A stretch of 64,000 nt of DNA from Shigella phage SSE1, in the sequence record MK639187; one strand, 5' to 3'. The notes below the pieces were generated by a model. That model did not search any database and was not told where the DNA came from. It saw nothing but the letters and a program-made list of their open reading frames with translations. Both the position numbers and the translations under genes were made by a program. This document shows, in pieces, positions 2,207 through 45,341 of the stretch. Positions within the stretch are counted from its first letter, which is position 1, and every line of letters starts with the position of its first letter.

Positions 2207-4020
2207 CAATTGAAAACGAAATTGAAGGATTGATTCATAAAACTAATAAAGACCTTTTAAACGAGAATGCTAATAAAGATTCTCGTGTTTTTCCAACTCA
2301 ACGTGACCTTATGGCTGGTATTGTATCTAAACACATTGCCAAAAATATGGTCGCGTCTTTTATTATGAAAGCACATGAAAGCGGAATTATTCATTTCCAT
2401 GATATTGATTATTCCCCTGCTCTTCCATTTACTAATTGTTGTTTAGTAGATTTAAAAGGAATGCTTGAGAACGGGTTTAAGCTCGGTAATGCGCAGATTG
2501 AAACTCCCAAATCAATCAGTGTTGCTACTGCAATTATGGCACAAATTACTGCGCAGGTTGCTTCCCATCAATATGGCGGAACGACTTTTGCTAATGTAGA
2601 TAAAGTACTTTCTCCTTATGTTAAACGTACCTATGCGAAACATATTGAGGACGCGGAAAAATGGCAAATCACTGATGCGTTGAATTACGCTCAATCTAAA
2701 ACAGAAAAAGACGTATATGATGCATTCCAAGCTTATGAATATGAAGTAAATACTCTCTTTAGTTCAAATGGTCAGACTCCTTTTGTGACAATTACATTTG
2801 GTACTGGAACTGACTGGACTGAACGAATGATTCAGAAAGCAATTCTGAAAAATCGTATTAAAGGTCTTGGTCGTGATGGGATAACTCCTATTTTCCCTAA
2901 ACTTGTTATGTTCATTGAAGAGGGTGTCAATCTTTATAAAGACGACCCGAACTATGATATTAAGCAGCTTGCTCTAGAGTGTGCAAGCAAAAGAATGTAT
3001 CCTGATATTATTTCAGTTAAGAACAATAAAGCTATCACTGGTTCATCTATTCCTGTTTCTCCAATGGGTTGCCGTAGTTTCTTGAGTGTATGGAAAGATT
3101 CGACTGGTAATGAAATTCTTGATGGACGCAATAATCTTGGTGTTGTAACACTGAATCTTCCTCGTATTGCATTAGATTCTTATATTGGAACACAGTTCAA
3201 TGAACAGAAATTTGCCGAATTGTTCAATGAGCGAATGGATTTATGTTTTGAAGCTTTGATGTGTAGAATTAGTTCCTTAAAAGGAGTTAAAGCGACTGTT
3301 GCTCCTATTCTTTACCAAGAAGGTGCATTCGGGGTTCGTCTTAAACCTGATGACGATATAATTGAGTTATTTAAAAACGGTAGAAGTTCAGTGTCCCTAG
3401 GATACATTGGTATTCACGAATTGAATATTCTTGTCGGTCGTGATATTGGACAAGAAATTTTAACTAAAATGAATGCTCATCTTAAACAGTGGACTGAAAG
3501 AACCGGTTTTGCTTTTAGTTTGTATTCTACACCTGCTGAAAACCTTTGTTATCGCTTCTGTAAACTTGATACTGAAAAATATGGAAGTGTAAAGGATGTT
3601 ACTGATAAAGGCTGGTACACTAATAGTTTCCATGTTTCAGTAGAAGAAAATATTACTCCGTTTGAAAAGATTTCTCGTGAAGCGCCATATCATTTCATTG
3701 CGACCGGTGGTCACATTTCTTATGTTGAACTTCCTGATATGAAAAATAACTTAAAAGGTCTTGAGGCTGTATGGGATTATGCCGCACAACATTTAGATTA
3801 TTTTGGTGTTAATATGCCAGTAGATAAATGTTTTACATGTGGAAGTACCCATGAAATGACTCCTACTGAAAACGGATTTGTTTGTTCAGTTTGCGGAGAA
3901 ACTGACCCTAAAAAGATGAACACAATAAGAAGAACTTGTGGTTATTTGGGAAATCCGAACGAACGCGGATTTAATCTCGGCAAAAATAAAGAAATCATGC
4001 ATAGGGTTAAACACCAATGA
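2203..4020 (+). CDS. nrdD: Anaerobic ribonucleoside-triphosphate reductase NrdD
   Basis: 605 aa, C-terminal CxxC zinc ribbon and glycyl radical region (RTCGYLG); single uninterrupted ORF. Confidence 0.95.
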   Translation: MTIENEIEGLIHKTNKDLLNENANKDSRVFPTQRDLMAGIVSKHIAKNMVASFIMKAHESGIIHFHDIDYSPALPFTNCCLVDLKGMLENGFKLGNAQIETPKSISVATAIMAQITAQVASHQYGGTTFANVDKVLSPYVKRTYAKHIEDAEKWQITDALNYAQSKTEKDVYDAFQAYEYEVNTLFSSNGQTPFVTITFGTGTDWTERMIQKAILKNRIKGLGRDGITPIFPKLVMFIEEGVNLYKDDPNYDIKQLALECASKRMYPDIISVKNNKAITGSSIPVSPMGCRSFLSVWKDSTGNEILDGRNNLGVVTLNLPRIALDSYIGTQFNEQKFAELFNERMDLCFEALMCRISSLKGVKATVAPILYQEGAFGVRLKPDDDIIELFKNGRSSVSLGYIGIHELNILVGRDIGQEILTKMNAHLKQWTERTGFAFSLYSTPAENLCYRFCKLDTEKYGSVKDVTDKGWYTNSFHVSVEENITPFEKISREAPYHFIATGGHISYVELPDMKNNLKGLEAVWDYAAQHLDYFGVNMPVDKCFTCGSTHEMTPTENGFVCSVCGETDPKKMNTIRRTCGYLGNPNERGFNLGKNKEIMHRVKHQ

Positions 4021-13139: not shown

Positions 13140-13179
13140 TAAATTTGTTAAACTTTGAATTGTCTTGAAAGGAAATAAA

Positions 13180-13866
13180 ATGAAACTGTCTAAAGATACT
13201 ATCGCTATTCTGAAAAACTTTGCCTCTATTAACTCTGGCATTCTGCTGAGTCAAGGTAAATTTATTATGACTCGTGCAGTTAATGGCACCACTTATGCGG
13301 AAGCAAATATCTCTGATGAAATTGATTTTGACGTAGCACTTTATGATTTGAATAGCTTCTTAAGTATTTTGAGTCTAGTGTCTGATGATGCTGAAATTTC
13401 AATGCACACCGATGGCAATATTAAAATTGCAGATACACGTTCCACAGTTTATTGGCCTGCCGCTGACAAGAGCACCATTGTTTTTCCTAATAAGCCAATT
13501 CAATTCCCAGTGGCTTCTGTGATTACTGAAATTAAAGCTGAAGACCTTCAACAATTGCTTCGAGTTTCACGTGGTCTTCAGATTGATACAATTGCTATTA
13601 CAAATAAAGATGGTAAAATTGTTATCAATGGCTATAATAAAGTTGAAGATTCTGGACTAACCCGTCCTAAGTATTCTTTGACTCTTACCGATTATGACGG
13701 TTCTAACAATTTTAACTTCGTAATCAATATGGCTAATATGAAAATCCAGCCAGGTAACTATAAAGTAATGTTGTGGGGAGCTGGTGATAAAGTTGCAGCC
13801 AAGTTTGAAAGCCCTCAAGTAAGTTATGTTATTGCGATGGAAGCCGATTCTACTCACGACTTCTAA
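13180..13866 (+). CDS. 45: Sliding clamp gp45
   Basis: 228 aa from MKLSKDT, recognised as T4 gp45-like. Confidence 0.9.
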   Translation: MKLSKDTIAILKNFASINSGILLSQGKFIMTRAVNGTTYAEANISDEIDFDVALYDLNSFLSILSLVSDDAEISMHTDGNIKIADTRSTVYWPAADKSTIVFPNKPIQFPVASVITEIKAEDLQQLLRVSRGLQIDTIAITNKDGKIVINGYNKVEDSGLTRPKYSLTLTDYDGSNNFNFVINMANMKIQPGNYKVMLWGAGDKVAAKFESPQVSYVIAMEADSTHDF

Positions 13867-28368: not shown

Positions 28369-28743
28369 ATGAATATGTCTCAAGCAATTTTTACTGCAAT
28401 CACCGAAAACACAACTGTTGAAGTAGTTTCTCCGCTGGCAACCTACGTTATTCTTGCTCCTAAAACTATTGTATCTCGTATGGAAAACACAGGCAAACGT
28501 ATCGTACAAATAGTTGGAGCTGGAAATCAAAAACTTGATTATCTACGAACCATCAAAGCTTATGAACATTTCCAACTCGAAAAAGGTTCTCCTATCCAGG
28601 TAGAACTCGTAAATGGTGATATCGTTCGAGCAATGTTCCATCATTTCTATGCATTGAATGACCCGTCTAAAGCGGTTCGTTTAATTGCATACGACGCAAA
28701 CCAAAACGAAATCAACGCAGATATATCTAAATTACGTTTTTAA
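28369..28743 (+). CDS. Hypothetical protein
   Basis: 124-aa ORF after early promoter 28310-28339. Confidence 0.5.
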   Translation: MNMSQAIFTAITENTTVEVVSPLATYVILAPKTIVSRMENTGKRIVQIVGAGNQKLDYLRTIKAYEHFQLEKGSPIQVELVNGDIVRAMFHHFYALNDPSKAVRLIAYDANQNEINADISKLRF

Positions 28744-31787: not shown

Positions 31788-32810
31788 ATGGCTGAATGGA
31801 TAGATAATGAATTTGCTTATCGTGCGTTTTCTCACCTACCTCGTTTTAGACAAATCAATAATTCAAGCACATTTAAATTAACATTTCGTTGTCCAGTTTG
31901 TGGCGACTCCCAGACAGATGCAATGAAAGCTCGCGGTTGGTATTATGGCGGTACTCCTGGTAATGTACATTGCTATAACTGCCAATACCACAATACAATT
32001 TCCGGATACTTAAAAGAGTATGATGAAGAGCTTTACCGCGAATATCTAATGGAAGTTCGTAAAGAAAAAGCTAGAATGGAACCAAAGATTGAAAAGGTTC
32101 CTGAAGCTAAGCCGGAGCCAGAGAAAAAGACTATAAATTCTTTGCCGTCTTGTTCTCGTCTGGACAAGCTGCCTGAAGAGCATCCTATTGTGAAATATGT
32201 TAAGTCTCGATGCATTCCTAAAGAATCATGGAACAGATTATGGTTCACATTAGAATGGCCTAAATTGGTCAACAAGATTCAACCTGGTACGTATAAGAAA
32301 GAGATTCCCGAACCACGTTTAGTGATTCCTATTTTTAATAAAGACGGGAAGGCTGAGTCATTCCAAGGACGTGCACTTCGTAAAGATGCTCCTCAGAAAT
32401 ATATCACTATTAAAGCGTTTGAGTCCGCAACAAAAATTTATGGTGTTGAACGTGTTAAGGAAGGGGACGTCTGGGTAATGGAAGGCCCTATTGATAGTTT
32501 ATTCATACCCAATGCAATCGCTATTACAGGCGGCTCAATAGATTTAGATGTGGTACCATTTAAAGAACGTCGGGTATGGGTAATGGATAATGAACCTAGG
32601 CATCCGGATACTATAGCTCGCATGAAGCGATTAGTTGATGCAGGCGAACGTGTCATGTTCTGGGACCGAGCTCCATGGAGATCAAAGGATGTGAATGATA
32701 TGGTAATGAAAGAAAATGCAACACCACAAGAAATTTTAGAATATATGAAACAGAATATTTCAAGTGGGTTGCATGCTAAAATGAGATTATCTCGTTATTC
32801 GAAGATTTAA
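31788..32810 (+). CDS. 61: DNA primase gp61
   Basis: 340 aa, N-terminal zinc ribbon CPVCGD...CYNC, TOPRIM-like core. Confidence 0.85.
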   Translation: MAEWIDNEFAYRAFSHLPRFRQINNSSTFKLTFRCPVCGDSQTDAMKARGWYYGGTPGNVHCYNCQYHNTISGYLKEYDEELYREYLMEVRKEKARMEPKIEKVPEAKPEPEKKTINSLPSCSRLDKLPEEHPIVKYVKSRCIPKESWNRLWFTLEWPKLVNKIQPGTYKKEIPEPRLVIPIFNKDGKAESFQGRALRKDAPQKYITIKAFESATKIYGVERVKEGDVWVMEGPIDSLFIPNAIAITGGSIDLDVVPFKERRVWVMDNEPRHPDTIARMKRLVDAGERVMFWDRAPWRSKDVNDMVMKENATPQEILEYMKQNISSGLHAKMRLSRYSKI

Positions 32811-33004
32811 ACAAGCCCTATAATAGCAAAGGCCAAATCAACTACAGTATCCAATGGAACAGAAGGAACTATAATACCATGGGCAACTAACAATGGCGCA
32901 ATCCCGAAGTTCCATGAAATAATGCCACCTACAACTATTGCAGCGATAGCAGTTTTCTTTTTATTGCCTTTAATAGCGTTGATTAACGATGGAAGTTTAA
33001 ACAT
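32807..33004 (-). CDS. Small membrane protein on the opposite strand
   Basis: 65 aa, two hydrophobic segments; SD AAGGAGA and late-promoter-like AATAAATA upstream on the - strand. Confidence 0.5.
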   Translation of the reverse strand: MFKLPSLINAIKGNKKKTAIAAIVVGGIISWNFGIAPLLVAHGIIVPSVPLDTVVDLAFAIIGLV

Positions 33005-33033: not shown

Positions 33034-33091
33034 ACGCTTTATAAAATTAATGTTAGAATTAACTCTCTTATACTGAATTGAAAGGATATAT

Positions 33092-33742
33092 GTGAATTAC
33101 CAAAAAATTTACTCGGATTTAATTACAAAAGCTAAATGCCGGCATCTTGGCGGATATAAAGAACGCCATCATATAATTCCTAGATGTATGGGAGGAGCAG
33201 ATGGCAAAAACAATCTTGTTGAGTTAACTGCGCGTGAGCATTTTATAGCTCATAGATTATTAACTAAAATATATCCAGATGTGAGAGGATTGCATTATGC
33301 TGTAAATTTAATGCGATATAATAAAGGTGTTAAATTAACAAGTAGATTAATAGAAACCCTTAAAATCCAAAACTCTGTTCTTTTCTCGGGTGAAAATAAT
33401 CCTAGATATGGCAAGCCGTCATGGATTAAAGGTAAAAAGACTCCAGAAGAAACTAAAGCCAAAATGCGTCTAGCTCATAAAGGTAAAATTATATCCGATG
33501 AAGCCAAGGCTAATATGAGTAAAGCCCGAAAAGGAAGATTTAGCGGTAAAAATTCGCCTCGATATGGTTTACCAAATCCTAGGCGAGGAGAAATATGGAA
33601 TAGTTATGATGCGCTTTATGAATTATGGGTTTATAATAATAGACCTAAGCGCACAAAATTTAATAAAATAGCTGTCAAGGCAGGTTATCCTAATATCTGC
33701 TATAGACATATGATAGAAAACTTCATAAGAAAGGAAAATAAC
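33092..33742 (+). CDS. HNH homing-endonuclease-like domain, reads in frame into gp56 without a stop
   Basis: GTG start; HHIIPRCMGG HNH core; NUMOD3-like repeats (GENNPRYGKP, GKNSPRYGLP). Confidence 0.65.
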
Positions 33743-34264
33743 ATGCCACATTTCAACGAATGTAGTCAACTGATCGAAGGTGTTGATAAAGCAGAAGAAG
33801 CTTATTTTAATGCTCTGATTCATGAAGATAAAGACCCACTGCAGGTAATGCTTGATATGCAGAAATCTTTACAGGTTCGTCTGGCAAATGACAAGCCTGA
33901 ACATAACAAACATCCTGATGAATTAGCCACTGCTGGCGATGTTGTTGATTGGCTGCGTAATCAGAAAGATTATATTGATGATGAATTCCGTGAACTGCTG
34001 ACTTCACTTGGTGGTATGAGCAATGGTGAAAAAGCCGCTAGCTCTGTATGGAAGCCTTGGAAAGCTCAACATGCTGAATATCGAAATCGTCGTATCTATG
34101 AACTGTCTCCTGAAGACCAGCTTGAAATTAAATTCGAGATGATTGATATTCTGCACTTCGTTCTGAACATGTTCCAAGGTCTGGGTCTTTCTGCTGAAGA
34201 AATCTTTAAACTTTACTACTTGAAAAACCAACACAACTTTGAACGCCAGGATAATGGTTACTGA
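33743..34264 (+). CDS. 56: dCTP pyrophosphatase gp56
   Basis: Internal ATG 33743 after AAGGAAA; 173 aa recognised as T4 gp56-like. Confidence 0.85.
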   Translation: MPHFNECSQLIEGVDKAEEAYFNALIHEDKDPLQVMLDMQKSLQVRLANDKPEHNKHPDELATAGDVVDWLRNQKDYIDDEFRELLTSLGGMSNGEKAASSVWKPWKAQHAEYRNRRIYELSPEDQLEIKFEMIDILHFVLNMFQGLGLSAEEIFKLYYLKNQHNFERQDNGY

Positions 34265-34309: not shown

Positions 34310-34546
34310 ATGGGTGGTTACGTTAATATCAAAACCTTTACGCATCCTGCAGGTGAAGGCAAAGAAGTTAAAGGTATGGAAGTTTCTGTACCGTTTGAGA
34401 TTTATTCAAACGAACATCGGATTGCAGATTCTCATTACCAAATCTTTCCATCAGAAAAGGCAGCTTATTCTGATGTCGTTTCTGATGCAGCAACTTGGAA
34501 AACTAAGAACGCAGCAATGTTTACCCCTACACCAGTAAGTGGTTAA
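34310..34546 (+). CDS. soc: Small outer capsid protein Soc
   Basis: 78 aa; GYVNIKTF and FPSEKAAYS recognised as Soc-like; TATAAATA late promoter upstream. Confidence 0.8.
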   Translation: MGGYVNIKTFTHPAGEGKEVKGMEVSVPFEIYSNEHRIADSHYQIFPSEKAAYSDVVSDAATWKTKNAAMFTPTPVSG

Positions 34547-34554
34547 ATAATTTA

Positions 34555-34582
34555 AGGAATCCTTCGGGATTCCTTTTTTTTT
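34555..34582 (+). terminator. Intrinsic terminator after soc (AGGAATCC-TTCG-GGATTCCT, T9)
   Basis: Seen in sequence. Confidence 0.75.
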
Positions 34583-34591
34583 GTTTCTACA

Positions 34592-34621
34592 GTTTACAAC
34601 CACTAAAAACTGTGTTAAGAT
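34592..34621 (+). promoter_or_regulatory. T4-type early promoter (GTTTAC...TAAGAT)
   Basis: Seen in sequence. Confidence 0.55.
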
Positions 34622-36089: not shown

Positions 36090-36189
36090 AGGCTTATCTT
36101 TAAATGGAGGTCTATCATGACATGTCAATCTGAACTTCAAGAACGCGAATACCTAACAAAATCATTCATTTGAAAATGTTGAATTTTTA

Positions 36190-36247: not shown

Positions 36248-36856
36248 ATGTTTATGCCGTATAACGAGTGTGAAATTGAAGAAATGGTTCGTCGTGCTCA
36301 AAACCCCGAATATCAAGATGTATTGCAGTACGAAATTGATAGTCAATTCAGCGACATTGAACAAAGTGTACTGTGGCAATGTATGGAAAACAAGCCAGAC
36401 TGTATTCAACAGGAGTTAAGTTCAATCGTTCGTAGAAATTGGACGTCTTCTGTTCCTGAGACAATGTATCGTGGAATCTCTAAGAAAACTATGGCCACAC
36501 TCGATGATAAAGGCGTTGGTAGTATTATTAAATTTGACAGAGTAATGAGCTTTAGTCCGGTGTTCGGTGTAGCACGTAACTTTGCTTCGTATAATTTTTA
36601 CGGAACATTTAATATGTTCTGCATCAAAGATGCACCATTTGCTTTCAACTTCCGTGAACATATGCTTAACATGATTCTGGCTGCACCATCTTGTGAGTTC
36701 AATGGAGCTTTCCCTGAAGCGACAAGACGGTCTAATGCTAGACTTATATCTGACGAATGTGAATTTATGCTCCCTATAGGGACTACACTGCGTGTAGATT
36801 CTATTATTCAAGATGGACGTTATACAATCTGGAATCTGTCTATTGTTGGTTACTGA
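36248..36856 (+). CDS. ADP-ribosyltransferase, ModA/ModB-like (R-S-E class)
   Basis: 202 aa; Arg in MYRGISKK, SFS, and ECEF (E-x-E) in the expected order. Confidence 0.55.
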   Translation: MFMPYNECEIEEMVRRAQNPEYQDVLQYEIDSQFSDIEQSVLWQCMENKPDCIQQELSSIVRRNWTSSVPETMYRGISKKTMATLDDKGVGSIIKFDRVMSFSPVFGVARNFASYNFYGTFNMFCIKDAPFAFNFREHMLNMILAAPSCEFNGAFPEATRRSNARLISDECEFMLPIGTTLRVDSIIQDGRYTIWNLSIVGY

Positions 36857-43523: not shown

Positions 43524-45341
43524 ATGATTAAAAATGAAATTAAGGTATTGTCAGATGTAGAACATATTAAGAAACGAAGTGGCATGTATATTGGTTCTTC
43601 AGCCAAAGAAGCCCACGAGCGTTTTTTGTTTGGTAAATATCAACAAGTTGAATATGTTCCTGGTCTGGTTAAATTAATCGATGAGATTATTGACAACTCG
43701 GTTGATGAAGCTATTCGTACATCATTTAAGTTTGCAAATAAAATTGATGTGCAAATTAAAAATAATCAAGTTTCAGTGGAAGATAACGGACGTGGTATTC
43801 CTCAAGGTTTAGTTACCGACCAAACAGGTGAACAAATTCCTGGGCCTGTAGCAGCCTGGACTATTCCAAAGGCTGGTGGTAACTTTGGCGATGACTCTGA
43901 ACGCAAGACTGGTGGTATGAACGGCGTCGGGAGTAGTTTAACTAATATCTTCTCTACGTTGTTTACAGGCATCACGTCAGATGGCGAAAATGAAATCACT
44001 GTTAACTGTTCAAACGGAATGGAAAACAAATCATGGTCTTCTAAGAAATCTAAAGGTAAAGGCACTAAAGTAATCTTCACTCCTGATTTCACTTCATTTG
44101 AAGAGCATAATTTATCTCAAATTTATTTAGATATTACTTTAGACCGACTTCAAACATTGGCAGTCGTTTATCCTGACATCAAGTTCACATTTAATGGTAA
44201 AAAGGTTGATGGTAATTTTAAACGATTTGCTAAACAATTTGGTGAAGATAACATCATTCAAGAAAATGATAAAGTCTCTATAGCATTCACAACATCACCA
44301 GATGGCTTCCGTCATTTAACTTATGTGAATAACATCCATACTAAAAATGGTGGTCATCATGTTGAATGCGTAATGGATGATATCTGCGAACATCTTTTGC
44401 CAGGTATTAAAAAGAAATATAAGGGTATTGAAGTCACTAAAGCTCGTGTTAAAGAATGTCTCACAATGTTGATGTTTATTAGAGACATGAGCAATATGCG
44501 TTTTGATTCTCAGACTAAAGAACGTTTAACGTCAACGTATGGTGATATTCGTAATCATATCCAATTAGATGCTAAGAAAATTGCTCAGGCACTTCTTAAA
44601 AACGAAGCCTTGATTATGCCTATTGTTGAAGCAGCATTAGCTCGTAAATTGGCGGCAGAAAAGGCTGCGGAAACTAAAGCAGCTAAAAAGGCAACTAAAG
44701 CTAAGGTTCATAAGCATATTAAAGCTAACCAATGTGGTAAAGACGCAGATACGACATTGTTCTTAACAGAAGGTGATTCGGCAATTGGTTATCTCATTGA
44801 TGTTCGTGACCGTGAACTACACGGCGGATTCCCATTACGTGGTAAGGTGATGAATAGCTGGGGTATGTCGTATGCTGATATGATGAAGAACAAAGAGCTC
44901 TTTGATATCTGTGCTATCACAGGTCTTATTCTTGGTGAAAAGGCAGAGAATACGAACTATCGTAATATTGCAATTATGACCGATGCCGATCATGATGGTC
45001 TTGGAAGTATTTATCCGGCTTTGCTTGCTTTCTTTAGTAATTGGCCCGAATTGTTCGAACAAGGACGTATTCGCTTTGTTAAAACGCCTGTAATTATTGC
45101 ACAAATTGGCAAAACTCAAAAATGGTTTTATACTGTAGCTGAGTATGAAGAAGTTAAAGATACACTGCCTAAGCATAGTATTCGATACATCAAGGGATTG
45201 GGCTCCCTTGAAAAGTCAGAATATCGTGAAATGATTCAGAATCCTGTGTACGACGTAGTTAAACTTCCTGAAAATTGGAAAGAACTCTTTGAAATGTTGT
45301 TGGGTGATGATTCAGAACTTCGTAAAGAATGGATGTCCTAA
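43524..45341 (+). CDS. 39: DNA topoisomerase II large subunit (GyrB-like), gp39 and gp60 equivalents in one ORF
   Basis: 605 aa; GHKL ATPase N-terminus and TOPRIM C-terminus in a single frame. Confidence 0.9.
   Translation: MIKNEIKVLSDVEHIKKRSGMYIGSSAKEAHERFLFGKYQQVEYVPGLVKLIDEIIDNSVDEAIRTSFKFANKIDVQIKNNQVSVEDNGRGIPQGLVTDQTGEQIPGPVAAWTIPKAGGNFGDDSERKTGGMNGVGSSLTNIFSTLFTGITSDGENEITVNCSNGMENKSWSSKKSKGKGTKVIFTPDFTSFEEHNLSQIYLDITLDRLQTLAVVYPDIKFTFNGKKVDGNFKRFAKQFGEDNIIQENDKVSIAFTTSPDGFRHLTYVNNIHTKNGGHHVECVMDDICEHLLPGIKKKYKGIEVTKARVKECLTMLMFIRDMSNMRFDSQTKERLTSTYGDIRNHIQLDAKKIAQALLKNEALIMPIVEAALARKLAAEKAAETKAAKKATKAKVHKHIKANQCGKDADTTLFLTEGDSAIGYLIDVRDRELHGGFPLRGKVMNSWGMSYADMMKNKELFDICAITGLILGEKAENTNYRNIAIMTDADHDGLGSIYPALLAFFSNWPELFEQGRIRFVKTPVIIAQIGKTQKWFYTVAEYEEVKDTLPKHSIRYIKGLGSLEKSEYREMIQNPVYDVVKLPENWKELFEMLLGDDSELRKEWMS

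Follow-up and report, generated by a model that had tools for sequence, protein, structure and literature searches.

The window analysed here, a stretch of 64,000 nucleotides (nt) from Shigella phage SSE1 (MK639187), raises the question of how a homing endonuclease gene has come to read without a stop codon into gene 56, the essential gene for the phage dCTPase/dUTPase (gp56). A single open reading frame (ORF) of 390 amino acids on the + strand (33092-34264), starting with GTG, covers both genes in the ORF list of the window, and the DNA holds no in-frame stop between the endonuclease part and the ATG of gene 56 at 33743. A preliminary description of the locus had noted this continuous frame and had placed three explanations side by side, namely a true fusion, translational coupling and a recent insertion of a mobile element. 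Our data point to a recent insertion followed by a point mutation. We consider it quite probable that a selfish homing endonuclease gene from a Tequatrovirus entered the site, that its stop codon was lost by deletion of one base, and that the fused ORF is tolerated and close to neutral.

The in-frame passage from endonuclease to gp56 is borne out by both the ORF list and the sequence. The junction codons are ...TTC ATA AGA AAG GAA AAT AAC ATG CCA CAT..., and the peptide across the junction is ...ENNMPHFNECSQLIEGVDK. The endonuclease part (codons 1-217, 33092-33742, + strand) was assigned from profiles, homology to T4 MobE and alignment as a MobE-like HNH/NUMOD3 free-standing homing endonuclease gene with a GTG start and a lost stop codon. 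It matches the PHROG 655 family 'homing endonuclease' (E = 2e-59), and residues 1-217 reach 29.4 bits with Pfam NUMOD3 (PF07460, cut-off 20.4) in two stretches. The score with Pfam HNH (PF01844) is 14.7 bits, under the gathering cut-off of 21.4, and this general HNH model is a poor fit for the MobE-like subgroup. In an alignment of 94 homologues the residues H26, H27, N41, H50 and H54 are invariant, and the motif aligns with that of T4 MobE. The HNH core and the NUMOD3 repeats, both noted earlier in the first 217 codons, are thus confirmed. Residues 1-81 are 65% identical to T4 MobE (E = 1e-34), and since this alignment begins at residue 1 it supports the GTG at 33092 as the true start, while the C-terminal two thirds of the endonuclease have no counterpart in T4 MobE. 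The structure model of this half has a mean predicted local distance difference test (pLDDT) score of 88, and residues 205-216 form its last helix, which extends as far as the junction. The top-ranked Foldseek matches of the model in the PDB are HNH domains, which are not significant, and a PDB sequence search gave no match for the endonuclease half. The endonuclease in the window looks intact.

Gene 56 (33743-34264, + strand) is complete, with 173 amino acids and its own ATG, as judged from profiles, homology to T4 gp56 and a fold model. Its Shine-Dalgarno (SD) sequence GAAAGGA lies at 33729-33735 and is separated from the ATG by a spacer of 7 nt, so that the separate start signals of gp56 given in the preliminary description are indeed present. 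The gp56 part, residues 218-390, reaches 29.4 bits with Pfam dUTPase_2 (PF08761, cut-off 22.9) and is 71% identical to T4 gp56 across the full length of 173 residues. This length fits the homologues, which have 166-173 amino acids in the 120 best cluster representatives, and no N-terminal extension of gp56 was found in these 120. The gp56 half, which was modelled separately from the endonuclease half, has a mean pLDDT of 86.5 and about 7-13 non-helical residues at its N-terminus. Its best Foldseek matches in the PDB are DCTPP1/MazG-like pyrophosphohydrolases with a probability up to 0.97 and weak, non-significant E-values; the PDB sequence search gave no match for this half either. As for the endonuclease, gp56 looks intact, and it also looks independently startable.

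The origin of the endonuclease gene was approached by comparison with related phages (megablast against a collection of 50,697 phage records, SSE1 not among them). The backbone of the window is that of a Mosigvirus (RB69-type), 94-100% identical to JQD51, HX01, PHB12 and AV112, all of which are without an endonuclease between genes 61 and 56 (the 61|56 site). The preliminary description had proposed a comparison with genomes lacking the insert, and about 150 phage records provide it: they carry the uninterrupted Mosigvirus junction TTGAAAGGAAAAATAATGGCG and no endonuclease, the insert-free sequence being TTGAAAGGAAAAATAATGGCGCACTTTAACGAATGTTCACAAC.... The whole 1701-nt query was matched by one record only, that of Mosigvirus AV111 (97.9%), which is also the one record in the collection with the insert in a Mosigvirus context. 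The same endonuclease gene is present at the 61|56 site in many Tequatrovirus genomes, including fPS-2, RPN226, G50 and IME340, and homologues occur at this site in Dhakavirus (VR5 and IME08, annotated 'mobE') and in Klebsiella T4-like phages.

The locus is a mosaic of the two genera. In a five-way alignment the informative sites change from Mosigvirus to Tequatrovirus type between 33073 and 33087 and back again between 33778 and 33781, which delimits a tract of Tequatrovirus origin (33087-33778, + strand) with the entire endonuclease gene and the first 36 nt of gene 56. Between 33087 and 33780 the window shows 2 differences in 694 nt from Yersinia phage fPS-2, a Tequatrovirus (99.7% identity). 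These are a substitution at 33117 and a one-base deletion, and the window copy of the endonuclease has a single amino-acid change, A9D, relative to the donors. The flanks of the tract are just 50-80% identical to Tequatrovirus, whereas they are 94-100% identical to the insert-free JQD51. The 36-nt foreign stretch that extends into gene 56 has the appearance of a co-conversion tract, as left by homing via double-strand-break repair. In addition, the SD sequence GAAAGGA is present twice, with one copy at each end of the insert. According to the alignment the left copy (33080-33086, + strand) is the resident gene 56 SD of insert-free genomes (JQD51: TTGAAAGGAAAAATAATG) and now serves the endonuclease, while the right copy (+ strand), identified from the sequence and alignments, is the one that serves gene 56 and lies inside the last endonuclease codons. 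A recent insertion of a mobile element is therefore strongly supported, by the abundance of insert-free relatives, by the near identity to copies in another genus and by the 36-nt tract. Separate acquisition by the window and AV111 was also considered. At their right ends the two tracts are distinguished by a single informative site (33781), and positions 32990 and 33067 carry donor-type bases in AV111; this is too little to tell a separate conversion from a point mutation.

The mutation that removed the stop codon is seen directly at the junction. In the donors RPN226 and fPS-2 the codons are AGA AAG GAA AAA TAA C ATG (junction sequence AGAAAGGAAAAATAACATG), and the two genes are annotated separately and lie in different frames. 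In the window and in AV111 the run of five adenines (A5) is reduced to four (A4), which gives AGA AAG GAA AAT AAC ATG (junction sequence AGAAAGGAAAATAACATG). The fusion is a stop loss, caused by deletion of a single base from the A5 run in which the endonuclease stop is contained. In the window the alignments place the A4 run at 33735-33738 and the TAA behind it at 33739-33741 (+ strand). Since one A is lost, the TAA no longer stands in the endonuclease frame, and this frame has become that of gene 56; with the stop removed and the frames coincident the ORF necessarily extends to the stop of gene 56, so that chance is not an issue. The deletion also shortens the spacer between the SD and the ATG of gene 56 from 8 to 7 nt. 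When a 60-residue peptide that crosses the junction was used as query in tblastn, 70 records with the endonuclease beside gene 56 were obtained. The peptide was matched in one in-frame piece in AV111 only; in the remaining 69 of the 70 it was matched in two pieces in different frames, with the stop kept. Both halves were covered by none of the 120 best listed matches to the fusion query.

Of the three explanations given at the outset, translational coupling fits only the donors, where TAA-C-ATG would allow it; in the window the TAA is out of frame and there is no termination-reinitiation. We also weighed programmed frameshifting and transcriptional slippage and reject both, since the run is only A4, the frames already coincide and there is no significant RNA structure at the junction (z = 0.55). 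As to slippage in the donors, a -1 slip on A5 would enter a frame that stops after about 11 codons and is not the frame of gene 56.

A one-base deletion in a homopolymer is a classic type of sequencing error, and the true genome might have A5 and a stop, the fusion being a miscall or an assembly artefact. The window has other single-base homopolymer differences from both relatives compared (33061, 36928, 40069 and 40671). However, the A4 junction is also found in AV111, a viable broad-host-range isolate sequenced by Illumina MiSeq 2x250 (PMC10844046), and it is implied by two deposited proteins of 390 amino acids. The first, QBZ71023.1, was deposited for SSE1 and is 100% identical to the window ORF; the other, EPO1808421.1, is a third fusion with different private substitutions and comes from a 170,875-bp contig filed under E. 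coli. No stop is thus found at the junction in AV111, in the SSE1 entry or in the third contig, all of which were sequenced independently. Moreover, none of the 69 records from other genera with identical surrounding sequence shows A4, and the other 1-2-nt indels between the window and its two relatives across 45-50 kb are all intergenic, with no other gene frameshifted. On account of the shared junction, the deposited proteins and the intergenic position of the other indels the deletion is not taken as a sequencing error, and an artefact is in our opinion extremely unlikely. The deletion is best read as a real inherited mutation common to a small Mosigvirus sub-lineage. The window and AV111 diverge by about 3-4% across 46 kb. 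The fusion is present in several viable phage genomes and is confined to a few Mosigvirus genomes; it is not conserved in all relatives. Searches for further copies were negative: the exact A4 and A5 junction patterns had no matches in IMG/VR, the combined A4/A5 pattern had none in JGI metagenomes, the junction pattern had none in complete E. coli genomes, and an exact-protein contig look-up with the 390-residue product returned no record.

The signals around the two starts suggest how the fused ORF would be expressed. A middle-promoter-like site with the MotA-box core GCTTTA, a distance of 12 nt and TAGAAT (33036-33059, + strand, identified by match to the consensus) lies upstream of the endonuclease in the resident Mosigvirus promoter region of gene 56, and the annotation of fPS-2 has a middle promoter at the corresponding position. 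The MotA-box/-10 pattern has 27 matches in the window against 5.5 expected, while a scan for sigma-70-type promoters gave no more matches than chance. A second middle-promoter-like motif, with GCTTTA, 13 nt and TATAAT (33613-33637, + strand, again a consensus match), lies within the endonuclease gene, with about 105 nt between it and the gene 56 ATG downstream, and the segment 33600-33699 that includes it is 100% identical in the Tequatrovirus donors. This motif could yield a transcript that encodes free gp56 only, and the mobile gene may in this way bring its own promoter for the essential gene downstream. Sequestering of a ribosome-binding site by a hairpin has been described for mobE. Here no such hairpins were predicted around either start (z-scores 0.40 and 0.55), and the SD/ATG region of gene 56 is predicted to be unstructured in RNA. 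In T4 the origin oriA is annotated 22 nt inside gene 56 (position 3264 of the T4 locus L005). The homologous position in the window falls within the 36 co-converted nucleotides, 33743-33778, and the insertion moves the upstream promoter about 650 nt farther from it.

Taken together, these observations suggest the following course of events. In a mixed infection in the very recent past, a MobE-family HNH gene at the 61|56 site of a Tequatrovirus would have been copied by homing or gene conversion into the corresponding site of a Mosigvirus genome, and 36 nt from the start of the donor gene 56 would have been carried along. After the transfer the Mosigvirus lineage would have lost one A of the A5 run. 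Transcription would enter from the middle-promoter-like site at 33036-33059. Ribosomes that start at the GTG at 33092 would proceed without termination and make an endonuclease-gp56 chimera of 390 residues, while those that start at the SD/ATG of 33743 would make the normal gp56 of 173 residues, either from the full transcript or from the transcript of the internal promoter. Homing endonucleases are usually weakly expressed. Most gp56 would therefore be free, and the stop loss should be tolerated and close to neutral.

The preliminary description had also considered a true fusion. This holds as far as a single ORF exists; it does not hold in the sense of an evolved two-domain protein, since the fusion arose by a one-base deletion, occurs in few Mosigvirus genomes and has kept the start signals of gp56. 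An adaptive fusion would mean that the protein was selected, for example because it links the expression or location of the endonuclease with the essential dCTPase or with the nucleotide-synthesis complex, or because the change from 8 to 7 nt between SD and ATG improves the translation of gp56. The occurrence of the allele in at least three Mosigvirus genomes, about 3% divergent and with differing private substitutions, would be in line with this, as would the fact that every Mosigvirus copy of the endonuclease seen carries the deletion and that the phages are viable. However, the insert is extremely young, with its 2 differences from the donor, gp56 has kept its internal SD and ATG unchanged, an N-terminal domain is absent from all of the 120 best gp56 representatives, the stop is kept in 69 of 70 endonuclease-gene 56 arrangements, and a single shared ancestor accounts for the distribution without selection. 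An adaptive origin of the fusion is therefore judged unlikely.

A related possibility is that the 390-residue protein is a working chimera, in which the oligomeric essential dCTPase carries a site-specific nuclease, and that the allele has spread by homing after the fusion. Such a chimera could, for example, deliver the nuclease to the nucleotide-synthesis or replication machinery, or link the production of the endonuclease obligatorily to an essential gene. If true, it would be a natural capture of a selfish endonuclease into the frame of a host gene without an intein or intron. The models of the two halves make the chimera sterically plausible, with a short linker, and we would give this possibility rather little weight.

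The opposite possibility is that the element is decaying, the stop loss being the first step of degeneration, with the fused nuclease inactive and gp56 made from its own start only. Once fixed, homing endonuclease genes are known to degenerate, an example being the defunct I-TevIII of T4 (PMC2790892), and in AV111 the region equal to 33115-33149 of the window has 4 substitutions within 35 nt, which give H18R and G20C near the HNH motif. In the window, by contrast, the only change relative to the donors is A9D and the invariant HNH residues are all kept. The element is also rare in Mosigvirus (about 1 in 150 records) and thus far from the fixation at which selection for activity would relax. 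Decay is accordingly regarded as very improbable. The cluster of substitutions in AV111 is suggestive of patchy conversion from a paralogue or of relaxed constraint.

The near-neutral fusion of a recently transferred endonuclease is preferred because gene 56 has kept its internal start signals intact, because the insert is very young and because no gp56 homologue among the 120 best representatives has an N-terminal domain. Some points weigh against it. Homing by this endonuclease is suggested by sequence mosaicism, and both promoter assignments are matches to a consensus. The private substitutions in each of the genomes with the fusion allele indicate that the allele has persisted or spread, which is compatible with a selective advantage. 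Furthermore, the last helix of the endonuclease ends at the junction, so that the linker is short and is supplied by the non-helical N-terminal residues of gp56.

The genes around the insert are those of a Mosigvirus. The left neighbour is gene 61, DNA primase (31788-32810, + strand), annotated in AV111, RPN226 and fPS-2, with 94-100% identity to JQD51 and 59-76% to Tequatrovirus. Between gene 61 and the insertion site lies a conserved ORF of 65 amino acids on the opposite strand (32807-33004, - strand; phrog_2024, E = 1.9e-27), for which no function was assigned and which has an annotated counterpart at this place in every relative. On the right, an ORF of 78 amino acids (34310-34546, + strand) occupies the position of soc (small outer capsid); for its equivalent the annotation of AV111 gives 'capsid and scaffold' and that of fPS-2 gives 'virion structural protein'. 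The ORF is followed by a terminator-like hairpin (34554-34575), and the length of the T-run behind this hairpin varies among genomes. The 3' region of soc (34400-34599) is 98-99% identical to JQD51 but only 73-86% to AV111, a local mosaic that adjoins the insert common to the window and AV111.

The window differs from its relatives at some other places as well. Right behind the gene 41 helicase the window and AV111 have an ORF of 124 amino acids (28369-28743, + strand) that JQD51 lacks (an indel of about 420 nt). At about 36156-36160, just upstream of an ORF of 202 amino acids (36248-36856), the window is without about 500 nt that are present in JQD51 and AV111. Compared with the window, AV111 is longer by two segments of about 800 and 850 nt, at about 45330-45335 and 13142-13206, respectively. 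The first of these (AV111 locus L009, 3217-4014) is annotated as a homing endonuclease beside the gene for the topoisomerase large subunit, and the homing-endonuclease content therefore differs between the window and the otherwise similar AV111.

The practical value of these results lies in annotation, and their general interest is modest. In GenBank the fusion ORFs of SSE1 and AV111 are annotated merely as 'homing endonuclease'. Since gene 56 is hidden in a coding sequence of that name, both phages seem to lack a dCTPase. What is unusual at this locus is the stop loss only, which gives an in-frame ORF of a selfish and an essential gene in viable phages. Because the endonuclease stop sits in the ribosome-binding spacer of gene 56, one base of slippage is enough to fuse the two. 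The locus also offers a clean and datable snapshot of intronless homing between genera, in which the donor type, both junctions, the 36-nt tract and one later mutation can be read. A fusion protein that is produced and active would be a natural test of how well an HNH/NUMOD3 endonuclease tolerates a C-terminal cargo. A pairing of SSE1 or AV111 with an RB69-type phage may be a tractable system for mapping the target of this uncharacterised MobE relative.

The closest systems for comparison are the copies in Tequatrovirus (fPS-2, RPN226, G50 and IME340), Dhakavirus and Klebsiella phages, which share the gene, the site and the duplicated SD with the window. In all of these the gene 56 ATG is preceded by a TAA at a distance of one or a few bases, and two coding sequences are annotated, whereas the window and AV111 have one of 390 amino acids. 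By its HNH domain the endonuclease would be placed in the T4 Mob group. T4 MobE, an experimentally characterised enzyme encoded between nrdA and nrdB, nicks nrdB of T2 and promotes gene conversion (Wilson & Edgell 2009, PMC2790892). The similarity to the window endonuclease covers the HNH domain (65% over 81 residues), MNYQKIY...HHIIPRCMGG...NLVELTAREHFIAH. Both genes are free-standing, intergenic, dependent on upstream transcription and set tight against a gene of nucleotide metabolism, and each is found in some close relatives and missing from others, with co-conversion of the flanks. Unlike mobE, the endonuclease gene of the window lies at 61|56 and has lost its stop codon, and the protein has 216 amino acids compared with 141, with NUMOD3 repeats and a helical C-terminal domain. 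As this extra part is absent from T4 MobE, the target is presumably different.

The region of gene 56 is a known hot spot for mobile endonuclease genes. SegF of T4 is a GIY-YIG homing endonuclease encoded between gene 56 and soc (Belle, Landthaler & Shub 2002, cited in PMC2993671). It resembles the present case in its position beside gene 56, on the other side; it differs in its nuclease family, which is unrelated, in its location downstream of gene 56 and in the absence of a fusion. In the T4 locus, gene 56 has dam upstream and segF downstream. SegF is said to target gene 56 of T2 and to cause localised marker exclusion, which would make gene 56 an established target region of intronless homing. 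In fPS-2 (locus L004, 2717-3553) and PYPS2T a second HNH endonuclease gene is found directly downstream of gene 56, where T4 has segF, so that in these two phages gene 56 sits between mobile endonuclease genes on both sides. Finally, mobE of Aeromonas phage Aeh1 splits nrdA. As at our locus, a mobile endonuclease there changes the coding layout of an essential gene of nucleotide metabolism and the phage survives, but in Aeh1 one gene is split into two polypeptides, whereas in the window two genes are joined by the loss of a stop.

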